From Aliivibrio fischeri ES114 (lineage in GTDB: Bacteria; Pseudomonadota; Gammaproteobacteria; Enterobacterales; Vibrionaceae): 32,000 nucleotides of DNA. The notes beneath the pieces were generated by a model. That model was not told the origin of the DNA. It searched no databases and saw only the letters and a list, made by a program, of their open reading frames with translations. Where the stretch lies: NCBI RefSeq assembly GCF_000011805.1, contig NC_006840.2, one strand, 5' to 3'. Of the stretch, positions 1 through 27,020 are shown piece after piece (positions within the stretch are counted from its first letter, which is position 1; the number at the start of each line of letters is the position of its first letter). Position numbers and translations under genes: made by a program.

Positions 1-29
1 TGGTAATGTGTATATTATGCCGATAAATC

Positions 30-247
30 AAACTGCATCACTTACACCCCCTCCTAGCCTCCCCTTATATCGGCAGTTTCTACCAAGTTACATTGGTGAA
101 AAAGGGGAGGGACAGTATTGTGAGCGCTGCGGCTACCACGATCACTCCTGAACCCTGTAAGGGAGCTTGCGACCGATCTGAACCCTAAGCTCTTCCTCGA
201 GGACGAAGTCCGTACTCGTTTCTCGAAGCGTAGCGCACTCGTCCCTA
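30..247. repeat. Nested-palindrome intergenic repeat, copy A (right-hand part; may continue past the left window edge)
   Basis: Type-1 core hairpin in reverse orientation: CCTCCCCTT 58-66 pairs with AAGGGGAGG 102-110 across a 35-nt loop. Long-form arm CCTGAACCCTGTAAGGGAGCTTGCGACCGATCTGAACCC at 147-185. Outer module CTCTTCCTCGAGGACGAAGTCC...CACTCGTCCCTA ends at 247, 20 nt before the yiiD ATG. The same modules recur in copies B-L. Confidence 0.85.
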
Positions 248-2441: not shown

Positions 2442-4565
2442 CTAGTTCTTATGTCTACGTACTTTAAGTGCGTGTGGCATAACACGGATACGACGCATTA
2501 TTTCAGCTAAATGTTTACGATCTTTCACCGTAAGCTCGATGGTTACTGTATATAAGCGTCCATCTTTTTCTTCTGTTGAAATACCACGGATATTTGATCC
2601 TGTACCTGCAATCACATTCGCCAAATCAGCTAATGCACCTTGGTGGTTTTGGATATCAATATCTAATGCCGTATCAAATTCTTGATCGAATTCATCAGCC
2701 CATTCAACGCCCATGTACTTATCAAGTTCTTTTTGATAACCACGAACATTTGCACACTCTTCCATATGAACCACAAGGCCACGGCCAGGACTTACGTGAG
2801 CAATAATGTGATCACCCGGAATAGGGCGACAACAGTTTGCAAATGTCAGTAAGATGCCATCAGCACCACGGATTGGTAGTTTTTTACCAGTGGTGGTTTC
2901 AATGTTTGAGGTTTGTTCCGTTAATTCATCAGCAGAGCCTAATAGGCGACGAGCAATAACAATACTCATCAACTCACCTAAGCCGATAGCGGCCAGTAAG
3001 TCATCCAGTTCTGCTAATTTAAGATCAGATAAAACGTGATCAATATTCTCTTGAGATATATCGTCTAGTGATACGTTATGACCTAAAGCGTGATTCAATA
3101 GGCGACGACCTAATACTACAGAGTCTTCTCTGCGCATGGTTTTTAGCACTTGGCGGATCTTCGTACGTGCTTTTGATGTTACTACGTAGTTCAGCCATGC
3201 TGCATTTGGACGAGCACCAGGAGCACTGATGATTTCAACCGTCTGACCATTTTTAAGTGGTTTACTTAGTGGGTAAGGTTGACGGTTAACACGTGAACCA
3301 ACACAACTGTTACCAACATCAGAGTGAACGGCGTAAGCAAAATCTACAGCCGTTGCGCCAACAGGCAGTTCAAAAATACGGCCTTTTGGAGTGAAAACGT
3401 AAATTTCGTTCGGGAAGAGATCCGATTTTACGTTTTCAATAAATTCAAATGAGCTACCTGCACTTTGTTGAAGTTCAAGTAAGCTTTGCATCCAGCGTTG
3501 TGCTCGGATTTGAGCCGTTGTGCTAGAGTTATCGCCTTCTTTGTACGACCAATGTGCAGCAACACCTTTGTTCGCCATTTGCTCCATATCTTCAGTACGA
3601 ATTTGTACTTCAACAGGAACACCGTGAGGGCCAACCATAGAGGTATGAAGCGATTGGTAGCCATTGGCTTTTGGTACAGCAATATAGTCTTTAATACGAC
3701 CCGGACGAGGTTTGTAAATGCTGTGAACTTGGCCTAATGCTCGATAACAAGTATCGACATTATCGGTAATTACTCGGAACGCATAGATATCCATAATGGT
3801 ATGGAAACGCTGTTCTTTATTTTTCATTTTATTGTAAATAGCGAACAGGTTTTTCTCTCTACCAATCACTCGGCCAGTGATGCCAGCTTCAGCAATACGA
3901 CCTTCAATTTCAGAGTGAATTTTTTGGATCATCTCTTTACGGTTACCACGAGCTGACTTCACCACTTCTTTTAATACGCGATAGCGATTAGGGTAAAGGG
4001 CTTCAAAACCTAACTCTTCAAGTTCAGTTTTAATATTGTGGATACCAAGGCGATGCGCCAAAGGAGAGAAGATTTCTAAAGTTTCACGAGCAATGCGGCG
4101 ACGTTTATCAGGGCGTAAAGCACCCAACGTGCGCATGTTATGAGTTCGGTCAGCAAGTTTGATCAATATAACGCGGATGTCTTGCACCATCGCCATGACC
4201 ATTTTTCGGAAGTTTTCAGCCTGTGCTTCTTTTTTATCGCGGAACTTAAGTTTGTCCAGCTTAGAAACACCATCCACTAATTCGGCAACCGTATCACCAA
4301 ACTGCTCAGCGAGCTCTTCTTTGCTAACTGCAGTGTCTTCAATAACATCATGAAGCAGCGCAGCCATCAGCGTTTTGTGGTCGAGCTTCATTTCTGCAAG
4401 GATTCGAGCCACAGCTACTGGGTGGATGATATAAGGTTCGCCACTTGAGCGAGTTTGCCCTTCATGGGCTTCTTTTGCTACCAGATAAGATCGACGAAGA
4501 GCCTCAATGTGAGGCTCTGGCAGGTAATCTTTGGCAACATCTTTCAGGCTATCGAATAAATCCAA
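2442..4565 (-). CDS. spoT: Bifunctional (p)ppGpp synthetase/hydrolase SpoT
   Basis: 707 aa. The N-terminus aligns with E. coli SpoT as I recall it (LFxSL...YLVAxxAHEGQTRSSGEPYIxHP). HD hydrolase motif HDVIEDT is present, followed by RelA/SpoT synthetase, TGS and ACT-like C-terminal regions. The start codon is TTG at 4565. Confidence 0.95.
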   Translation of the reverse strand: MDLFDSLKDVAKDYLPEPHIEALRRSYLVAKEAHEGQTRSSGEPYIIHPVAVARILAEMKLDHKTLMAALLHDVIEDTAVSKEELAEQFGDTVAELVDGVSKLDKLKFRDKKEAQAENFRKMVMAMVQDIRVILIKLADRTHNMRTLGALRPDKRRRIARETLEIFSPLAHRLGIHNIKTELEELGFEALYPNRYRVLKEVVKSARGNRKEMIQKIHSEIEGRIAEAGITGRVIGREKNLFAIYNKMKNKEQRFHTIMDIYAFRVITDNVDTCYRALGQVHSIYKPRPGRIKDYIAVPKANGYQSLHTSMVGPHGVPVEVQIRTEDMEQMANKGVAAHWSYKEGDNSSTTAQIRAQRWMQSLLELQQSAGSSFEFIENVKSDLFPNEIYVFTPKGRIFELPVGATAVDFAYAVHSDVGNSCVGSRVNRQPYPLSKPLKNGQTVEIISAPGARPNAAWLNYVVTSKARTKIRQVLKTMRREDSVVLGRRLLNHALGHNVSLDDISQENIDHVLSDLKLAELDDLLAAIGLGELMSIVIARRLLGSADELTEQTSNIETTTGKKLPIRGADGILLTFANCCRPIPGDHIIAHVSPGRGLVVHMEECANVRGYQKELDKYMGVEWADEFDQEFDTALDIDIQNHQGALADLANVIAGTGSNIRGISTEEKDGRLYTVTIELTVKDRKHLAEIMRRIRVMPHALKVRRHKN

Positions 4566-4615
4566 ATTTCGCCCCGTCAGGTTTGCTGTTTACAATCTAC
4601 AAGAGATTATAAAGA

Positions 4616-4888
4616 TTAACGATTGTGTGTGATTGAGCTTACTGCTGCTAATTCAGCTGCGTCTTGCTCTTGTTGCTCTTGGCGCTCACGAGCATCTAGT
4701 AATTCTTTAGTGATCAGGCCTTCTTCAATTTCACGAAGAGCGATAACAGTTGTTTTATCGTTCTCTTCAGGCACTAGCGCATCTTTACCACCAGTTTGCA
4801 TTTGACGTGCGCGACGAGAAGAAATAAGTACTAGATCGAAACGGTTGCCGATTTTCTCAACTGCGTCTTGAACGGTTACACGTGCCAT
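4616..4888 (-). CDS. rpoZ: DNA-directed RNA polymerase subunit omega
   Basis: 90 aa. [21 protein letters not shown]...RRARQ is the canonical omega N-terminus. The gene lies between gmk and spoT. Confidence 0.95.
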
Positions 4889-11702: not shown

Positions 11703-12422
11703 ATGCAAGAAAACCATAAGATTTTAGTAGTTGATGATGATGCTCGTCTTCGTTCTTTATTAGAGCGTTACTTGTCAGAACAAGGCTTTCAAGTGCGTAG
11801 CGTAGCTAACAGTGAACAAATGGACCGTTTATTGGCTCGTGAAACTTTCCACCTAATGGTATTGGACTTAATGTTGCCGGGTGAAGATGGCCTATCTATT
11901 TGCCGCCGCTTACGCAGTGCAAATAATATGTTGCCGATCCTAATGCTAACGGCAAAAGGCGATGAGATTGATCGCATTGTTGGTTTGGAAGTCGGTGCTG
12001 ATGATTACTTACCAAAACCATTTAACCCACGTGAATTACTAGCACGTATTCGTGCGGTATTACGTCGCCAAGTAATTGAAGCGCCTGGTGCTCCAAGTGC
12101 AGAAGATAAAATGATTGAGTTTGGTGAATTCCGCTTAAATCTAGGCACACGTGAAATGTTCCGTAATGAAGAACCAATGCCACTGACATCAGGGGAATTT
12201 GCCGTTCTAAAATCATTAGTGACGAACATGCGTGAACCAATGTCGCGCGATAAATTGATGAATATGGCTCGTGGCCGCGAATATTCAGCAATGGAACGTT
12301 CAATTGACGTTCAAATTTCTCGTCTTCGTCGTATGATTGAAGAAGATCCAAGTCGTCCACGCTATATTCAAACGGTGTGGGGATTAGGTTATGTATTTGT
12401 TCCTGATGGGGCAGAAGCGTAA
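11703..12422 (+). CDS. ompR: Osmolarity response regulator OmpR
   Basis: 239 aa. It has a receiver domain (ILVVDDD...VLDLMLPGEDG) and a winged-helix OmpR/PhoB output domain (IQTVWGLGYVF), and is highly similar to enterobacterial OmpR. Confidence 0.95.
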   Translation: MQENHKILVVDDDARLRSLLERYLSEQGFQVRSVANSEQMDRLLARETFHLMVLDLMLPGEDGLSICRRLRSANNMLPILMLTAKGDEIDRIVGLEVGADDYLPKPFNPRELLARIRAVLRRQVIEAPGAPSAEDKMIEFGEFRLNLGTREMFRNEEPMPLTSGEFAVLKSLVTNMREPMSRDKLMNMARGREYSAMERSIDVQISRLRRMIEEDPSRPRYIQTVWGLGYVFVPDGAEA

Positions 12423-12425
12423 GAG

Positions 12426-12830
12426 TAGGGACGAGAATTGAGTACGTTTCGCTTAAGGGGCGAGGAAGAGCGTTAAAAGCAGAGTTCAGATCGGTCGCAG
12501 GCTCCCTTGCAGGATTCAGGGGAGATCGTTGTGATATCTACGATCACAGTACAGCTCCTCCCCTTGTTCATTAATGTTACTTGGTAGTAATTGTTGATAT
12601 AAGGGGAGGCTAGGAGGGGTTGTAAATGATGAAGTTCGGTTTAACCGAATAGCAAGAAACATTATAACCAACCCCCCCTCTAACTCCCCCTTGTATTAAC
12701 TATGTCGATCTCATGGCTATTGCGATAAAGGGGGAGAACCTTTCTTTGTCGCTGCTATAACAATATCCACCTCTGAATTCTGCTAGCGAAGCGATCTGAA
12801 CTCTGCTCTTTCAGAACCCTAGTCTTCAAA
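12426..12830. repeat. Nested-palindrome intergenic repeat, copy E (double-core form between ompR and envZ)
   Basis: Outer module TAGGGACGAG starts at 12426. Long-form arm 12479-12522. Linker hairpin: GATCGT 12524-12529 with ACGATC 12540-12545. Type-1 core: 12557-12565 with 12601-12609. Central palindrome TTCGGTTTAACCGAA at 12635-12649. Reverse type-2 core: 12684-12692 with 12728-12736. Short-form arm 12770-12806. The two arms are equidistant from about position 12642. Confidence 0.9.
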
Positions 12831-12854
12831 TTCATCACCAAACAGAGAACCTCT

Positions 12855-14159
12855 ATGAAAAGCACCTTCGCCAGAACCCTTTTACTCCTCGCATCCCTTC
12901 TTATCGCCAGTCAAGTATTCTCCTATCTCGCGGTTTTTAATTACGCCTTATTACCTAGCTTGCAGCAGTTTAATCGCATTTTGGCTTATGAAGTACGCTT
13001 AATGTTGGCGGAAGATGTCACGCTAGAGAGTGGTAAAAATGTTCATTTAGGGCAGCCTCTACGACGCCAATTATTAGAGCAACTTGGTGTAAGTATTCAT
13101 GATGAAAACGATCCTGATATGAAAGAGTATTATCAGGCCAGTCCGGTTGAATTTTTAAGTGAAGAGATGACTCAGGAATTAGGGGCACCAACAGAGGTGC
13201 GTTTGATTCTAGGTGCAGACAGCTATGTATTGTGGATGAAGAGTGAAGCAATGCCTGAGTTTTATATGCGAATACCACTTTCAGAGCTGCAAGAAGATGA
13301 TTTTGCACCGCTCTTTAGAAACAGTTTATTTATCGCTCTACTCGTCATTCTTGGTGGTTGGACGTTTATTAAAATTCAGAATAGACCATTAATGGCACTG
13401 CAAACTGCCGCTCGTAAAGTAGGTAAAGGTGAAATACCCGATCCGTTACCTGAAAAAGGAGCATCAGAGATTCAAGCAGTGACTCGTGCATTTAACCAAA
13501 TGTCGAAGGGCATTCAGAAATTAGAGCAAGACCGAGCGTTATTAATGGCCGGGGTCAGTCATGATATTCGAACACCATTAACTCGGATTCGTTTAGCCAC
13601 AGAAATGATGTCTCCAGAAGACAGCTACCTTGCCGAAAGTATGATTAAAGACACGGAAGAGTGTAATGAGATCATCGGTCAATTCATGGACTATTTAAAG
13701 CCAGTCGCAAAGCAAGATTTTACTCAGGTGGATGTTAATACCATCGTTAATGAAGTGATATTAGCTGAGGGTGGTTATGAACGTGAAATTCAAACCAAAC
13801 TCGCCATGATCCCAAAAGCGATTAATGGTAATGCAGTAGCAATTAAGCGAGTGATCACTAATTTGGTCGTTAATGCGATTCGATATGGTGGTGATTGGAT
13901 CCAAGTCTCAACCAGTGTGTCTGCTGACCATAAAACCGTATGGATTATTATTGAAGATAATGGCCCTGGAGTTGATAACGCACAGCTAGAAACCGTTTTT
14001 GAACCTTTTACTCGAGGTGATACAGCTCGTGGTAGTGAAGGAACAGGGTTAGGATTAGCCATTGTTAAGCGTATTGTTACTCAGCATCAAGGTGAAGTGA
14101 GTTTATCGAACCGAAGTGAAGGTGGTTTGAAGGTTCAAGTTGAGTTTCCGTTGGGGTAA
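12855..14159 (+). CDS. envZ: Osmosensor histidine kinase EnvZ
   Basis: 434 aa. FARTLLLL...[16 protein letters not shown] aligns with the EnvZ N-terminus, followed by a HAMP domain, an H-box [22 protein letters not shown] and the G2 box GTGLGLAIV. The frame is open upstream only to TGA 12774-12776, with no ATG, GTG or TTG before 12855. The Shine-Dalgarno sequence is weak. Confidence 0.9.
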
Positions 14160-14405
14160 GAGTAAAAAGCTAGGATTCAGGTCTCAGGTTTCAGGAAGAG
14201 CAAAAGCGAGTACACCTGAAACCTGCAAGCGTAGCGCCCTGAAACCTAAAAACTCACCACATCAACCATGTCCGCTCTTATAGTTTCTAGTCAGCGCAGC
14301 GTATCGTTCCTAGTAAAAAATAAAAAAGACCGCAGATGATAATCACCTGCGGTCTTTTTCGTTTTTACTCGTCCTTAGAGCGAAGAGAACTTGTTTCTAG
14401 TCCCT
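14160..14405. repeat. Nested-palindrome intergenic repeat, copy F (convergent envZ/xanP gap)
   Basis: TTTCAGG module with an 11-bp stem, CAGGTTTCAGG 14185-14195 with CCTGAAACCTG 14215-14225, and a 19-nt loop. Also CAAGCGTAGCGCCCTGAAACC and a T-module, CTTATAGTTTCTAGTCAGCGCAGCGTATCG, at 14277-14306. The degenerate outer end ...CTAGTCCCT finishes at 14405, directly abutting the xanP stop codon. Confidence 0.85.
14322..14359. terminator. Bidirectional Rho-independent terminator embedded in copy F
   Basis: Stem GACCGCAG 14328-14335 with CTGCGGTC 14347-14354. An A-run lies upstream and TTTTT downstream. Confidence 0.8.
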
Positions 14406-15797
14406 TTAAGCAATCACATCTTGTTTTGCTTCTTCTTTCACTTCTGCATACGGCAATACGATATTTAAGATAATCGCAGTTACACCACCAGCAGTTACAC
14501 CTGATGAGAAAATGTTTTTAATCATCTCAGGCATGAACTGAAGAATTTCAGGTTTTTGAGCTAAACCAAGACCCATGGAGAAAGACATAGCCATGATTAG
14601 GATCGCGCGACGATCTAGTTCAACACGAGAGATAATACGCACACCAGCAGCCGCAATCGTACCGAACATCACAATAGTCGCACCACCAAGCACAGGCTCA
14701 GGAATGATCTGCACCATGCTTGCTACCCCTGGGAATAAACCAAGAAGAACTAGCATACCTGCGATGAAATAACCCACATAACGGCTTGCTACACCCGTTA
14801 ATAGAATTACGCCATTGTTTTGGCTAAACGTTGAGTTAGGGAAGCTGTTAAATGCTGCAGCGATTGCCGAGTTAATACCATCAGCTAATACACCGCCTTT
14901 AATGCGCTTCATATAAACCGGTCCTTTCACTGGTTGGCCTGATACTTCTGATGTCGCAGTAATATCACCAATGGCTTCTAGTGCCGTGATTAAGAAGATA
15001 AGCACCAAAGGAATAAACAGAGACCAGTCAAAACCTAAGCCATATTGCATAGGAATAGGTAGGGCAATGAGAGCTGCATCATGAGACATCTCTGTATTAA
15101 GCATTCCCATCGCCCACGCCACTAGCGTACCTACCGTCATTGCGATAACGATAGACGCCATACGTAGGTAAGGGTTAGTTGCTCGGTTTAATACCACAAT
15201 AATTAGTAATACCGTGCCAGCAAGAGCGAGTTTATCAAGGCTACCAAATGTGCCTTCGCCCATAGCTGAATACCCGCCCCCCATAGACACTAAACCGACT
15301 TGAATAAGAGTAAGGCCAATTAGGGTAACAACAATGCCAGAGACTAATGGAGTAATGATTTTTTGAGCGTATTCAAGAACACGAGACAGGAAAATTTCAG
15401 CGGTTGAAGCAACAAGAATGGTACCGAAAATGGCTGCCATCATTGTAGGAACATCAGCACCACCGGCTTTTAGTGCAAGGCCAGCACCAATGATTGGGCC
15501 TAAGAAATTAAAACTGGTGCCTTGAACTGAAAGTAAGCCAGAACCGATAGGGCCAAAGGTTTTAATTTGAATAAAAGAAGAAATGCCCGAAGCAAATAAA
15601 GACATGCTGATGATGGTATTGGTTTCAGCCGCTGGAACACCAAGTGTCTGACAGATGATCAGAGAAGGCGTAATAATAGCAACAAACATTGCCAGTAAGT
15701 GCTGAAAAGCAGCAAATAAAGTGTGCGGTAGCGGTGGACGATCATCTAATTGGTAGATCAATTCAGATGGTTTTGTGGTGCTGTTTTTAACGGTCAT
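14406..15797 (-). CDS. xanP: NCS2-family xanthine permease (XanP/YicE-like)
   Basis: 463 aa and colinear with E. coli XanP as I recall it ([34 protein letters not shown]...GDITATSxVSxQPVxGP...[16 protein letters not shown]). Confidence 0.85.
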
Positions 15798-15997
15798 GGC
15801 CGATATTCCTAGTTGTGTAACGTTGTCTTCAAATCTCGCTGAATGGGAGTTTGAAGTGAGAAGGCGTCAATCTGTGATTGCTGTTAATCAGAACCTTTCT
15901 CGATAGGGTTGCATTGTTAAGTTCAATACTTAATCAATTGGAGCGGTATTTTATAGATAATTTAATGAAAAGCAATCGTTTGCTTCGTTTTTTAAAT

Positions 15998-16177
15998 GAA
16001 GGGACGAGAGACGAGGACGCTTCGCTCGAGAGGGAGGCAGGGCAAAGTCGAAGAGCGAGGATTCAGGTCGCTTCGCTTGCAGGCTTCAGGTGTACTTGCT
16101 TTTGATTTTCCTGAAACCTGAAACCTGAAACCTGAAACCTCGCCTTTGCTCTTATAGCTTCTAACTCCGCCCCGTCC
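15998..16177. repeat. Nested-palindrome intergenic repeat, copy G (overlaps the comF 3' end)
   Basis: Outer module GGGACGAGAGACGAGGACGCTTCGCTCGAG starts at 16001. Arm AGGATTCAGGTCGCTTCGCTTGCAGGCTTCAGG at 16058-16090. A 19-nt loop follows, then CCTGAAA x4 at 16110-16140. The end CTTATAGCTTCTAACTCCGCCCCGTCC reaches 16177, inside comF. Confidence 0.85.
16110..16140. repeat. Tandem heptamer (CCTGAAA) x4.4
   Basis: Four perfect head-to-tail CCTGAAA units at 16110-16137 plus CCT. Other copies of the same module carry one or two units. Confidence 0.95.
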
Positions 16178-18188: not shown

Positions 18189-18194
18189 GGGGTT

Positions 18195-18383
18195 AAGAGC
18201 AGGGACGAGAGGTGAGTACGCTTCGCTCGAGGAGCGAGGGAGAGCGTAGGATTCAGGCCTCAGGTTTCAGGAAGATCAAAAGCGAGTACACCTGAAACCT
18301 GCAAGCATAGCGCCCTGAACCCTAAAACCTTTTTCTCTGCTCTTACTCGCCCCTAGAAGCGCAGCGTTCTCGTCACTCGAAAC
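18195..18383. repeat. Nested-palindrome intergenic repeat, copy H (complete outer-F-outer form; convergent gap)
   Basis: AAGAGCAGGGACGAGAGGTGAGTACGCTTCGCTCGAGGAGCGAG starts at 18195. Central 11-bp stem: CAGGTTTCAGG 18261-18271 with CCTGAAACCTG 18291-18301, 19-nt loop. The right outer module CTCTGCTCTTACTCGCCCCTAGAAGCGCAGCGTTCTCGTCAC runs up to the tex stop codon. Confidence 0.9.
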
Positions 18384-20752: not shown

Positions 20753-20929
20753 AGGTTTCAGGTTTCAAAAGAAGCAGAGTTCAGATCGCTTCGCTGGCAG
20801 AATTCAGAGGTGATCGCTTTAATTTCAACGATCACTTCTGAACTCTGCAAGGGAGCTTGCGACCGATCTGAGTTCTGCTCTCAGCTCTTCCTCGTCCCTC
20901 GAGCGAAGCGTCCTCGAATCTCGTCCCTA
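20753..20929. repeat. Nested-palindrome intergenic repeat, copy I (between greB stop and tex start)
   Basis: (GGTTTCA)x2 starts at 20754. Short-form arm 20774-20810. Linker hairpin: TGATCG 20811-20816 with CGATCA 20829-20834. Long-form arm 20835-20878. The outer module CTCTTCCTCGTCCCTCGAGCGAAGCGTCCTCGAATCTCGTCCCTA ends at 20929, and its last three bases are the greB stop codon. Confidence 0.9.
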
Positions 20930-21400
20930 CACCTGGTACCTAATCGAATTCACGAACCACTCTTTATCCCCATCAGGCGTTTTTACAATCACATCTTCAT
21001 CCACTTCTTTTTTGATCAGTGCACGAGCCATTGGGGAATCGATAGAGATATAGTCGTTGCGGCCAAATATTTCATCAGGACCAACGATGCGAAAAGAGAG
21101 GGTATCGCCTTGTTCGTTTTCAATTTCAACGAACGCACCGAAAAAGATTTTTCCGTCTTGCTGTGGGGAATAGTCGACCACTTTTACTTGGTCTAAACGT
21201 TTACGAAGGTAGCGAACACGGCGGTCTATTTCACGAAGGCGTTTTTTGTTGTATTGATAATCAGCGTTTTCACTGCGATCACCAAGGCTAGCCGCCCAAG
21301 TCACTTTTTTTGTGACTTCTGGGCGTTCTTCTTTCCATAGAAACGTGAGTTCATCTTGTAGCTTATTAAAGCCTTCACGTGTGATTAAATTGGTTTTCAT
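20927..21400 (-). CDS. greB: Transcription elongation factor GreB
   Basis: 157 aa. MKTNLITREGFNKLQDEL...GDRSENADYQYNKKRLREIDRR is the Gre coiled-coil signature, and the C-terminal globular domain is present. Confidence 0.9.
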   Translation of the reverse strand: MKTNLITREGFNKLQDELTFLWKEERPEVTKKVTWAASLGDRSENADYQYNKKRLREIDRRVRYLRKRLDQVKVVDYSPQQDGKIFFGAFVEIENEQGDTLSFRIVGPDEIFGRNDYISIDSPMARALIKKEVDEDVIVKTPDGDKEWFVNSIRYQV

Positions 21401-22972: not shown

Positions 22973-23020
22973 TACGGTTCCTTTGTCATTTTTTATTATT
23001 TTTTGTGGAGCTGTTTTTAT

Positions 23021-23124
23021 AAGAGTTCAGATCGCTTCGCTTGCAGAATTCAGAGGGGAGCGTTGAAATATCAGCGAGCACCTCTGAACCCTGTAAGGGA
23101 GCTTGCGACCGATCTGAATCCTGC
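23021..23124. repeat. Nested-palindrome intergenic repeat, copy J (minimal arm-linker-arm form)
   Basis: Short-form arm AAGAGTTCAGATCGCTTCGCTTGCAGAATTCAGAGG at 23021-23056. Linker 23057-23080. Long-form arm CCTCTGAACCCTGTAAGGGAGCTTGCGACCGATCTGAATCCTGC at 23081-23124, ending 2 nt before the coaBC stop codon. Confidence 0.9.
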
Positions 23125-23126
23125 TT

Positions 23127-25900: not shown

Positions 25901-25928
25901 ACCCAGCCTTGTTGCTGGGTTTTTTTTT
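25901..25928 (+). terminator. Rho-independent terminator of rpmB-rpmG
   Basis: Stem ACCCAGC 25901-25907 with GCTGGGT 25914-25920, followed by eight T at 25921-25928. Confidence 0.85.
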
Positions 25929-25932
25929 GCGT

Positions 25933-26306
25933 GAAGAGCAGGGACGAGAGGTGAGGACGCTTCGCTCAAGGAGCGAGTAAGGTCAAAAACGGAAGAGCTA
26001 GAGTTCAGATCGCTACGCTTGCAGAGTTCAGAGGCACTTGCTTCTAGCTCCTCCCCTTTATCGACATAGCCACTTGGTTGATAAAGTAAATATAAGGGGA
26101 GGCTGGGAGGGGTTGTTAGTAAATGACTAGGAACTATACGCTGTGCTAACTAAATACTATAAAATCGAGTATGGTAGGTGTTTTGAGTTATCATGAAACA
26201 TGAAACCTCGATCTTGCTCTTATCGTTTCTAGTTAGCGAAGCGTATAGTCTCTAAAACTCGCCGCTTCTTGAACCTCGAACGAAGCGTCCTCGCTTCTAG
26301 TCCCTG
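25933..26306. repeat. Nested-palindrome intergenic repeat, copy K
   Basis: GAAGAGCAGGGACGAGAGGTGAGGACGCTTCGCTC starts at 25933. Arm TAGAGTTCAGATCGCTACGCTTGCAGAGTTCAGAGG at 25999-26034. Type-1 core: CCTCCCCTT 26050-26058 with AAGGGGAGG 26094-26102. T-module halves at 26116-26157 and 26218-26258. Right outer module ...CGAACGAAGCGTCCTCGCTTCTAGTCCCTG ends at 26306. Confidence 0.9.
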
Positions 26307-26325
26307 TTCTTAAAAAGGATTTAAA

Positions 26326-26781
26326 ATGAAAAAACCATCACGTCGCAAATACAACAACATGCTGATCATCTTCGTGTTGCTTTTCATTGCAGTACTTCAA
26401 GCTCCTCAGCTAATAAAAACATATTTAATAGAACCAAAAGAAAATATTGAAGTAGTTGAAGGTATTAAGCCGTTATTCGAAGGGGAAAATGCGATCCAAA
26501 AAATGCATTTTTCAGAATACGATCTAAGTGCTAATACTTCAGAGCAAGAGAGCCAACTCATTGAACGTTGGTTTACGCTAGAAGGAACCCTTCTTAATGA
26601 TGATTCAGTAAAAGCATTGAAAGAAAAGTTACCCGCTCCAAGCTCTGTTGAAGTCTGGCTTGAAGACCAGGAAGAGCCGCAACGAATTACTATTTACCAA
26701 GCACCAAGTTTTTGGATGATGCAAAACTGGCAAGGTGAGTGGATCGCAGTAAGTGCGGAAGAAGGGTATTTGTTTAGGTAA
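26326..26781 (+). CDS. Hypothetical membrane-anchored protein
   Basis: 151 aa. A basic N-terminus is followed by one hydrophobic helix (MLIIFVLLFIAVL) and an acidic soluble domain. AAAGGA Shine-Dalgarno is present. I recognised no family. The ORF is bracketed by repeat copies K and L. Confidence 0.6.
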   Translation: MKKPSRRKYNNMLIIFVLLFIAVLQAPQLIKTYLIEPKENIEVVEGIKPLFEGENAIQKMHFSEYDLSANTSEQESQLIERWFTLEGTLLNDDSVKALKEKLPAPSSVEVWLEDQEEPQRITIYQAPSFWMMQNWQGEWIAVSAEEGYLFR

Positions 26782-26998
26782 GAGCAGGGACGAGAGGCGA
26801 GGACGCTTCGCTCGTAGAGTTCAGAGGCAGTTGCTTCTAGCTCCTCCCCTTTATCGACATAGCCACTTGGTTGATAAAGTAAATATAAGGGGAGGTTGGG
26901 AGGGTTTGTTAGTAAATAGCTAGAAATTATACGCAGCGTTAACTTGAGCGCTTTACTTGCAGAGTTTAAAGGAACTTGCTTTTGATTTTCCTGAAACC
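26780..26998. repeat. Nested-palindrome intergenic repeat, copy L (deletion derivative of the K form)
   Basis: AAGAGCAGGGACGAGAGGCGAGGACGCTTCGCTCG starts inside the stop codon of the 151-aa ORF. Type-1 core: 26843-26851 with 26887-26895. Positions 26831-26895 are identical at 65 of 65 bases to 26038-26102 of copy K. It ends with ...CTTGCTTTTGATTTTCCTGAAACC at 26998. Confidence 0.9.
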
Positions 26999-27020
26999 TT
27001 ATCTTTAAAAGGAAGCCCCA

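Follow-up and report, generated by a model that had tools for sequence, protein, structure and literature searches.

OmpR-EnvZ is a textbook two-component system in which the regulator:kinase ratio affects signalling robustness, and Aliivibrio fischeri is a leading symbiosis model. In Escherichia coli K-12, the annotated ompR and envZ genes overlap by 4 nt, as stated in an initial annotation of the locus studied here, whereas in the 32,000-nt stretch of A. fischeri ES114 DNA that we analyzed (referred to as the window) the two genes are separated by 432 nt and thus lack the tight spacing of a coupled operon. This arrangement raises the question of what the intervening DNA is, how it came to lie between a response regulator and its kinase, and what it means for their expression.

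Genes and translation start at the ompR-envZ junction

All features are given on the plus strand. The ompR gene (11703-12422) encodes a 239-aa response regulator of the VF_0114 type with the Pfam domains Response_reg and Trans_reg_C, and the protein is 100% identical in many A. fischeri assemblies; envZ (12855-14159) encodes a 434-aa protein with HAMP, HisKA, and HATPase_c domains that shares 99% identity with EnvZ of A. fischeri strain emors.2.1. The TAA stop of ompR, which ends at 12422 and directly adjoins the repeat described below, and the envZ ATG at 12855 lie where the initial annotation had put them. It was also correct in that the envZ frame is closed by TGA at 12774-12776 and that ATG, GTG, and TTG are absent from there to the ATG at 12855. 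VF_0115 of ES114 is annotated as 1,305 bp, which corresponds to the same ATG start (PMC7811199).

The ribosome-binding site of envZ is weak (CAGAGAACCTCT-ATG), as had been noticed before; the Shine-Dalgarno (SD) sequence is just a GAG at positions -10 to -8 in CAGAGAACCTCTATG. This SD-like GAG belongs to the envZ leader TCTTCAAATTCATCACCAAACAGAGAACCTCT (12823-12854), a unique sequence of 32 nt that is kept, together with the ATG, at all core Aliivibrio loci, whatever their repeat content. The ensemble folds leave about 0.55 of the leader unpaired, versus 0.33 of the gap body, and such an open leader beside the repeat body would fit a self-contained repeat structure that leaves the start site accessible. 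Several public annotations (L076-L082) assign EnvZ a noncanonical ATC or ATT start located 21 to 24 nt before the ATG, giving proteins of 441/442 aa; these starts fall within the conserved leader (window 12834-12854), and ES114 uses the ATG (434 aa).

The spacer is a nested composite of repeat modules

As initially proposed, the gap corresponds to one copy of a dispersed repeat; it is made wholly of modules of a mosaic repeat plus the 32-nt unique leader. Module A (12425-12471) starts 2 nt past the ompR stop and extends from GTAGGGACGAG through a GCTTCGC-type core, here mutated to GTTTCGC, to GAGGAAGAGC; it is present in all A. fischeri alleles and has 85% identity to 18194-18247 and to 20884-20930 (reverse complement). 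The two outer arms that follow occupy the positions described previously. The left arm (12478-12522; "C long-form" in reverse orientation) harbors, on the opposite strand, a small TGCAAGGGAGCCTGCGA-type hairpin; the arm matches 20826-20879, 23058-23126, and 120-186 when these are reverse complemented and pairs with 12768-12810 in the minimum-free-energy fold. The right arm (12768-12807; "C short-form" in reverse orientation) carries a GCGAAGC mini-hairpin core at 12786-12792 and matches 20773-20812 and 23022-23056, read as reverse complements, at 97%.

Between the arms, a small local hairpin seen in the fold, GATCGTTGTGATATCTACGATC (12524-12545), precedes the core hairpin Da (12553-12622), which runs from CTCCCCTT to AAGGGGAG, ends in the G-rich tail AGGAGGGGTTG, forms a hairpin in the minimum-free-energy fold, and is 76% and 73% identical to 26046-26116 and 26839-26909, respectively. 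The palindrome center (12623-12668) includes an 8-codon mini-ORF and the central palindrome TTCGGTTTAACCGAA, found at 12635-12649 in agreement with the first description, and it is common to the copies in L076, L079, and L082 and to those downstream of envZ in L075 and L066. The inverted core hairpin Db (12669-12749) begins with a C-rich tail, continues from CTCCCCCTT to AAGGGGGAG, and is followed by AACC and TTTCTTTGT; it is 85% complementary to 1214-1350. Of the two complementary tails that had been reported, the C-rich one was placed exactly (12669-12679), whereas the G-rich one was displaced by one base and lies at 12612-12622, not 12611-12621. Beyond the right arm, alignment of alleles identifies a remnant of a B-type arm, CTTTCAGAACCCTAG (12808-12822), after which about 62 nt, comprising a spacer and a module named E', have been deleted in the window allele.

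The symmetry of the gap is pronounced. A gapped alignment of its two halves agrees at 118 of 168 positions and scores 47.5 versus -6.7 ± 4.9 for shuffled sequences, and terminal inverted repeats are present at 12475-12493 and 12792-12810, which are complementary at 18 of 19 positions (95%). The RNA fold prediction that had been recommended gave -156.3 kcal/mol for the gap (z = -6.75), a value reached by none of 100 shuffles, and folding as DNA yielded a minimum free energy of -73.4 kcal/mol (z = -7.1). The mini-ORF at the apex (12626-12652; MMKFGLTE-stop) has a perfect AGGAGG 8 nt upstream. The combination of SD sequence, ATG or GTG start, and 8-codon ORF is kept in independent copies of the palindrome, located in L066 (about 4460), L075 (about 5440), and the window (about 40-60, reverse complement), with the translations VMQFDLSA, MMNLNLSE, and MMKFGLIE, each followed by a stop; this conservation may simply be that of the palindrome sequence.

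The modules belong to a repeat family spread through intergenic regions

Copies of the family occur in about 12 intergenic regions of the 32-kb window, among them 1-267, 1168-1500, 2191-2441, 14160-14405, 15978-16160, 18189-18383, 20754-20930, 23019-23126, 25918-26316, and 26782-27013, and several of these regions sit between codirectional genes. Inverted nested pairs (A...A', C...C', and E...E') build mosaic clusters of alternating orientation. The palindrome of about 330 nt is itself a repeated unit found at several unrelated loci: besides the gap, copies lie downstream of envZ in Aliivibrio sifiae L066 (4327-4653; 328 nt, 86%) and in A. fischeri L075 (5331-5619; 293 nt, 85%), and another, cut by the window edge, lies at window 16-186 (171 nt, 80%). 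The copy in L075 occupies a B-hairpin loop that is empty in other strains. In A. sifiae L066, direct copies of the unit stand on both flanks of envZ (2685-2934 and 4327-4653), a configuration that could promote deletion or gene conversion.

When oriented on the motif GCGNAGC, each repeat arm consists of direct-repeat units, the motif, and then the same units again, with units of the flavors CTGAAYTC, CCTGAAACC, CCTCG/TCGTCCC, TCTAG, and CTTAAG (briefly CTGAA, CTAGA, CTCG, and CTTAA). GCGNAGC has been described as an extraordinarily stable DNA mini-hairpin motif (PMC13037366). It occurs 32 times in the window, versus 12.8 ± 3.7 expected, and 22 of the 32 cores are intergenic although intergenic DNA makes up 16% of the window; examples are at 12786-12792, 14229-14235, 16019-16025, 18220-18226, 20788-20794, 20903-20909, and 26236-26242. 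GTAG is found at some module starts (12425, in GTAGGGACGAG; 26812; 18245), inconsistently, and the units are direct repeats around GCGNAGC, not simple palindromes.

Further regularities were observed among the copies. Module A (AAGAGCAGGGACGAG / GTAGGGACGAG) repeatedly begins at the stop codon of a neighboring gene or overlaps with it, as in TAA|GAGTAGGG, TAA|GAGCAGGG, and a TAG stop within GTAGGGACGAG on the minus strand; such contacts are located at window 12420-12435, 26779-26794, 20920-20930, and 14400-14408 and just after envZ in L075, L078, and L081. The presence of module A after the envZ stop varies by strain, with TAAG flanks. AAGAGC/GCTCTT recurs as a linker between modules, and a tandem array of four CCTGAAA units lengthens one arm of a B-type module (window 16110-16140).

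Pairs of filled and empty alleles gave no convincing target-site duplication, pointing instead to module replacement or hairpin-loop insertion, and only AAGAGC/TAAG-type linkers recur at their junctions. Rfam returned no match at the gathering score over the whole window and, at a permissive threshold, two chance-level matches in the gap (a microRNA and a small nucleolar RNA; E about 0.3). A blastn search of the gap against plasmid and phage collections found no match, so that nothing points to an origin on a plasmid or phage, and a metagenome scan with the conserved arm motif retrieved 4 contigs with partial arm matches. In the literature, searches for a described Aliivibrio or Vibrio fischeri repeat or miniature inverted-repeat (MITE) family and for REP/RAYT surveys covering Vibrionaceae turned up nothing specific. 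The family built around GCGNAGC mini-hairpin cores thus seems to be undescribed; it is abundant, shapes most intergenic regions of Aliivibrio, and confuses gene callers, and its direct-repeat arms, AAGAGC linkers, apex mini-ORF, and loop-directed nesting make it worth a genome-wide study.

The spacer is an insertion shared by the core Aliivibrio

Spacing was compared at 72 loci that had been retrieved with EnvZ. In Photobacterium, Grimontia, and Enterovibrio, the ompR TAA is followed by 3 nt and the envZ ATG, and a GAGG is located within the end of ompR; Aliivibrio kagoshimensis and a related metagenome-assembled genome have a 12-nt gap and the same MKSTFAR start as the window. In this comparison, the core Aliivibrio (A. 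fischeri, A. logei, A. sifiae, A. finisterrensis, and other species) show gaps of 184 to 426 nt with repeats at the junction in all of them, and modules of the family were detected solely in these loci, the taxa with enlarged gaps. Compared with the ancestral state of 3 nt in Photobacterium, Grimontia, and Enterovibrio and 12 nt in A. kagoshimensis, the gap is a true insertion, as originally suggested. Since relatives without the family keep 3 to 12 nt and all core Aliivibrio carry repeats, the insertion is clade-wide, and its 432 nt make termination-reinitiation coupling impossible in the window strain.

It had been argued that the element would lose significance if close relatives lacking it had the same envZ start and spacing; L010 and L013, which lack it, do have the same start (MKSTFAR), but relatives without the family show a spacing of 3 to 12 nt rather than 432 nt. 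The shared start also disposes of the idea that the insertion shortened the EnvZ N terminus, because EnvZ of these element-free relatives begins at the same MKSTFAR; truncation of EnvZ by the insertion is accordingly rejected, and the shorter N terminus predates the insertion. We also rejected the possibility that the repeat supplies the ompR stop, because in species with other modules the stop is again TAA or TAG and lies at that position or right next to it. A large ompR-envZ spacer is not a peculiarity of the Aliivibrio clade, since other Vibrionaceae lineages have one as well. The Vibrio rumoiensis/litoralis/algivorus clade has gaps of about 210 to 300 nt containing GCGAAGC-core modules of its own, which are repeated locally, and Vibrio hibernica and relatives have gaps of about 160 to 180 nt. 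L045, L048, and L033 exemplify such gaps in Vibrionaceae lineages with uncoupled ompR and envZ.

Strains of A. fischeri carry different spacer alleles

For variation within the species, contigs encoding an identical OmpR were collected. The gap measures 184 nt in L074; 220 to 228 nt in L075, L073, L077, and L080; 323 nt in L078; 432 nt in the window and L081, which are identical; and 475 to 494 nt in L082, L079, and L076. L009 has a gap of 419 nt. The spacer is therefore hypervariable (184 to 494 nt), even where the envZ genes of the strains differ by about 1%. Module maps and alignment show that the short alleles have the order A-B-spacer-E'-leader, that in L078 a C hairpin is accompanied by a short D hairpin, and that in the window allele, which has lost the spacer and E', Da, the center, and Db are added inside the C hairpin; the longest alleles retain E'. 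Among A. fischeri alleles, nothing but module A, the leader, and the ATG is invariant. The initial picture of the giant palindrome as a fixed control device is not borne out, because near-identical strains carry alleles of 184, 220, 323, 432, and 475 to 494 nt with other modules, and the dispensability of the palindrome among such strains argues against a dedicated switch.

Gap alleles do not track the envZ phylogeny, which points to rapid turnover, recombination, or both. Relative to the window, envZ has 11 nucleotide differences in L075 (220-nt gap) and 14 in L074; the latter combines an envZ of the A. fischeri type with a 184-nt gap and leader whose allele is that of another Aliivibrio species, L002 (244 differences), a mismatch suggestive of recombination whose breakpoint lay close to the start of envZ. 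The spacer downstream of envZ is equally polymorphic, with 246 to 536 nt between strains. In the window it (14160-14405) has the layout A-B-spacer-E' of the short ompR-envZ alleles, as seen in comparison with L075 5246-5781 and L078, and a genuine terminator (GACCGCAG...CTGCGGTCTTTTT) follows the repeats downstream of envZ. All gap alleles are structured to a varying degree (z from -0.9 to -8). Every core Aliivibrio keeps at least 184 nt of structured repeat and none has returned to a tight junction; the decoupled state could therefore be selected and not merely tolerated. With at least five different structured ompR-envZ spacers, A. fischeri strains offer a natural allelic series for the effects of repeats on operon stoichiometry.

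Expression signals and alternative explanations

The suggestion that the insertion brought a new internal promoter found no support in the window, where a scan of the gap revealed no promoter-like (sigma-70-like) site. A search for terminator-like sites likewise gave no match in 12423-12854, and Db is a poor terminator candidate: its loop is long, at about 34 nt, and the U tract is shifted 4 nt away from its stem (AACC and TTTCTTTGT). VF_0114 and VF_0115 were reported to be upregulated together (PMC7811199), and a light-organ proteome lists OmpR but not EnvZ (PMC3187790); neither a transcription start site map nor processing data for V. fischeri were found in the literature.

An envZ transcribed independently of ompR from a promoter carried by the repeat is, in our judgment, very unlikely. 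Most alleles do contain a promoter-like TTGTCG-N18-TATAGT in the spacer and E' module, some 42 nt before the envZ ATG (L079 4126-4155; L075 3870-3899), so envZ may not need to depend on read-through alone in those strains; the match, however, arises at about the chance rate in shuffled sequences, the module is deleted in the window allele, which has no other promoter-like site, and the two genes are reportedly coregulated. It is scarcely credible that the uncoupled envZ is dispensable and decaying or that the spacer is an assembly artifact. Single-base deletions do interrupt envZ in two assemblies (L079, position about 20; L073, about 917), but they lie in short homopolymer-like runs, the ParA-like gene upstream in L073 is also split, and both contigs (2.9 Mb) are presumably long-read assemblies, all of which makes sequencing error the likely cause; envZ is intact in the window and in 20 or more Aliivibrio loci, with 89 to 99% protein identity. 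An artifact was rejected because the independent assembly L081 has the identical 336-nt palindrome and the same 432-nt gap.

We consider it doubtful, though a serious candidate, that the structured spacer is an adaptive posttranscriptional control element, serving as a partial terminator, an RNase III/E site, or an exonuclease barrier for a high OmpR:EnvZ ratio. Its very stable fold, an 18/19-bp outer duplex near the size of RNase III substrates, the Db hairpin followed by AACC-TTTCTTTGT on the mRNA strand, and the retention of a structured spacer in all core Aliivibrio would all accord with such a role, and terminator-like hairpins at the ompR-envZ junction in three other Vibrionaceae lineages (L008 2914-2943, L040 2924-2950, and L056 2864-2885) suggest recurrent selection for uncoupling. 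However, module content varies even within the species, neither the palindrome nor Db is found in the short alleles, some of which have folds hardly more stable than those of shuffled sequences (L077, z = -1.0; L037, z = -0.9), a canonical terminator is absent, and the same repeats occupy most other intergenic regions. A more elaborate scheme, in which the family is an undescribed class of nested elements, marked by direct-repeat arms around the ultrastable GCGNAGC DNA mini-hairpin, by AAGAGC linkers, and by an SD-led 8-codon mini-ORF at the apex of the palindrome, that target hairpin loops, move via single-stranded DNA, and form a strain-specific spacer "rheostat" that sets EnvZ:OmpR ratios, appears improbable to us; were the rheostat real, the alleles of 184 to 494 nt would set this ratio, and osmoregulation, biofilm, and symbiosis phenotypes would be affected.

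A probable permissive intercistronic site for a nested repeat

The 432-nt spacer is shown here to be a nested assembly of modules from a mosaic repeat family that is genome-wide and specific to Aliivibrio, and its presence between ompR and envZ looks like ordinary repeat-element turnover and not a dedicated switch. The account that we favor, and regard as reasonably probable, is that of a nested MITE/BIME-like repeat at a permissive intercistronic site, with ompR and envZ probably cotranscribed and envZ translated independently from its weak site. A basal composite of module A, a B/C-type hairpin, the spacer, and module E' is present at the junction in all core Aliivibrio; in the window lineage, a separate palindromic unit (the small hairpin, Da, the center, and inverted Db) lies within the loop of the C hairpin, with which it makes up the palindrome of about 330 nt, and the spacer and E' were later lost via a short deletion. 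The repeats may spread and turn over by recombination or gene conversion between copies or by hairpin-directed transposition, and they probably accumulate at this junction because the site tolerates them.

As for expression, the conserved leader and ATG, the intact envZ, the lack of promoter and terminator, and the joint upregulation lead us to infer cotranscription with independent translation of EnvZ. Both genes would still lie on one mRNA from the ompR promoter, the repeat would fold on itself and leave the conserved 32-nt leader fairly open, and EnvZ would arise from independent, inefficient initiation at the ATG at 12855, in place of termination-reinitiation. The long hairpin may block 3' exonucleases and so shield the ompR portion of the transcript, or it may be a cleavage site of RNase III or E; either, by analogy with REP, ERIC, and Correia elements, would favor OmpR over EnvZ. 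A change of OmpR:EnvZ stoichiometry by the insertion, as first proposed, is plausible; any such effect would be generic to the family and strain variable, not specific to the palindrome of the window. If the spacer has no effect, the operon would be tolerant to the loss of translational coupling.

Comparison with known intercistronic repeats

REP sequences are known between cotranscribed genes such as malE-malF and hisJ-hisQ, where the upstream cistron is favored. The Aliivibrio family shares with REP/BIME elements (reviewed in PMC3184786 and PMC2817692) a high copy number, an extragenic location, a mosaic of short imperfect palindromes in alternating orientation, and positions between cotranscribed genes directly past stop codons, where the elements fold in mRNA. 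The Aliivibrio units differ in that they are longer, with an onion-like nesting of up to 330 nt, have no consistent GTAG/CGTC head, possess arms that are direct repeats around GCGNAGC, and show no sequence similarity to REPs. ERIC/IRU elements, imperfect palindromes of 127 bp in Enterobacteriaceae and Vibrionaceae, likewise insert into transcribed intergenic regions, even inside operons, and grow into larger variants through internal insertions. Both ERIC and REP elements act within transcripts (PMC3184786), and ERIC can alter mRNA decay via RNase E (De Gregorio 2005, as summarized in PMC3184786). The Aliivibrio repeats appear to form a different sequence family, and they are restricted to Aliivibrio, modular, and far more variable in length.

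Correia (NEMIS) elements of Neisseria and the Chunjie MITE of Geobacter are similar as MITE-like palindromes in operons that are left functional; a MITE insertion has been reported to leave its operon intact, and duplexes of Correia inverted repeats are cut by RNase III (PMC10969869). Those elements, however, have defined terminal inverted repeats with TA or other target duplications, whereas the Aliivibrio repeat shows no clean target duplication. The BOX elements of Streptococcus pneumoniae resemble it as modular mosaics beside genes, with a variable number of modules and stable predicted structures, but they are unrelated in sequence and host, and their modules are linear, not nested. BOX elements are built as mosaics of boxA/B/C-like modules repeated next to genes. 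In its organization and probable action, the Aliivibrio element is like the intercistronic repeats of the BIME/REP, ERIC, or MITE type.
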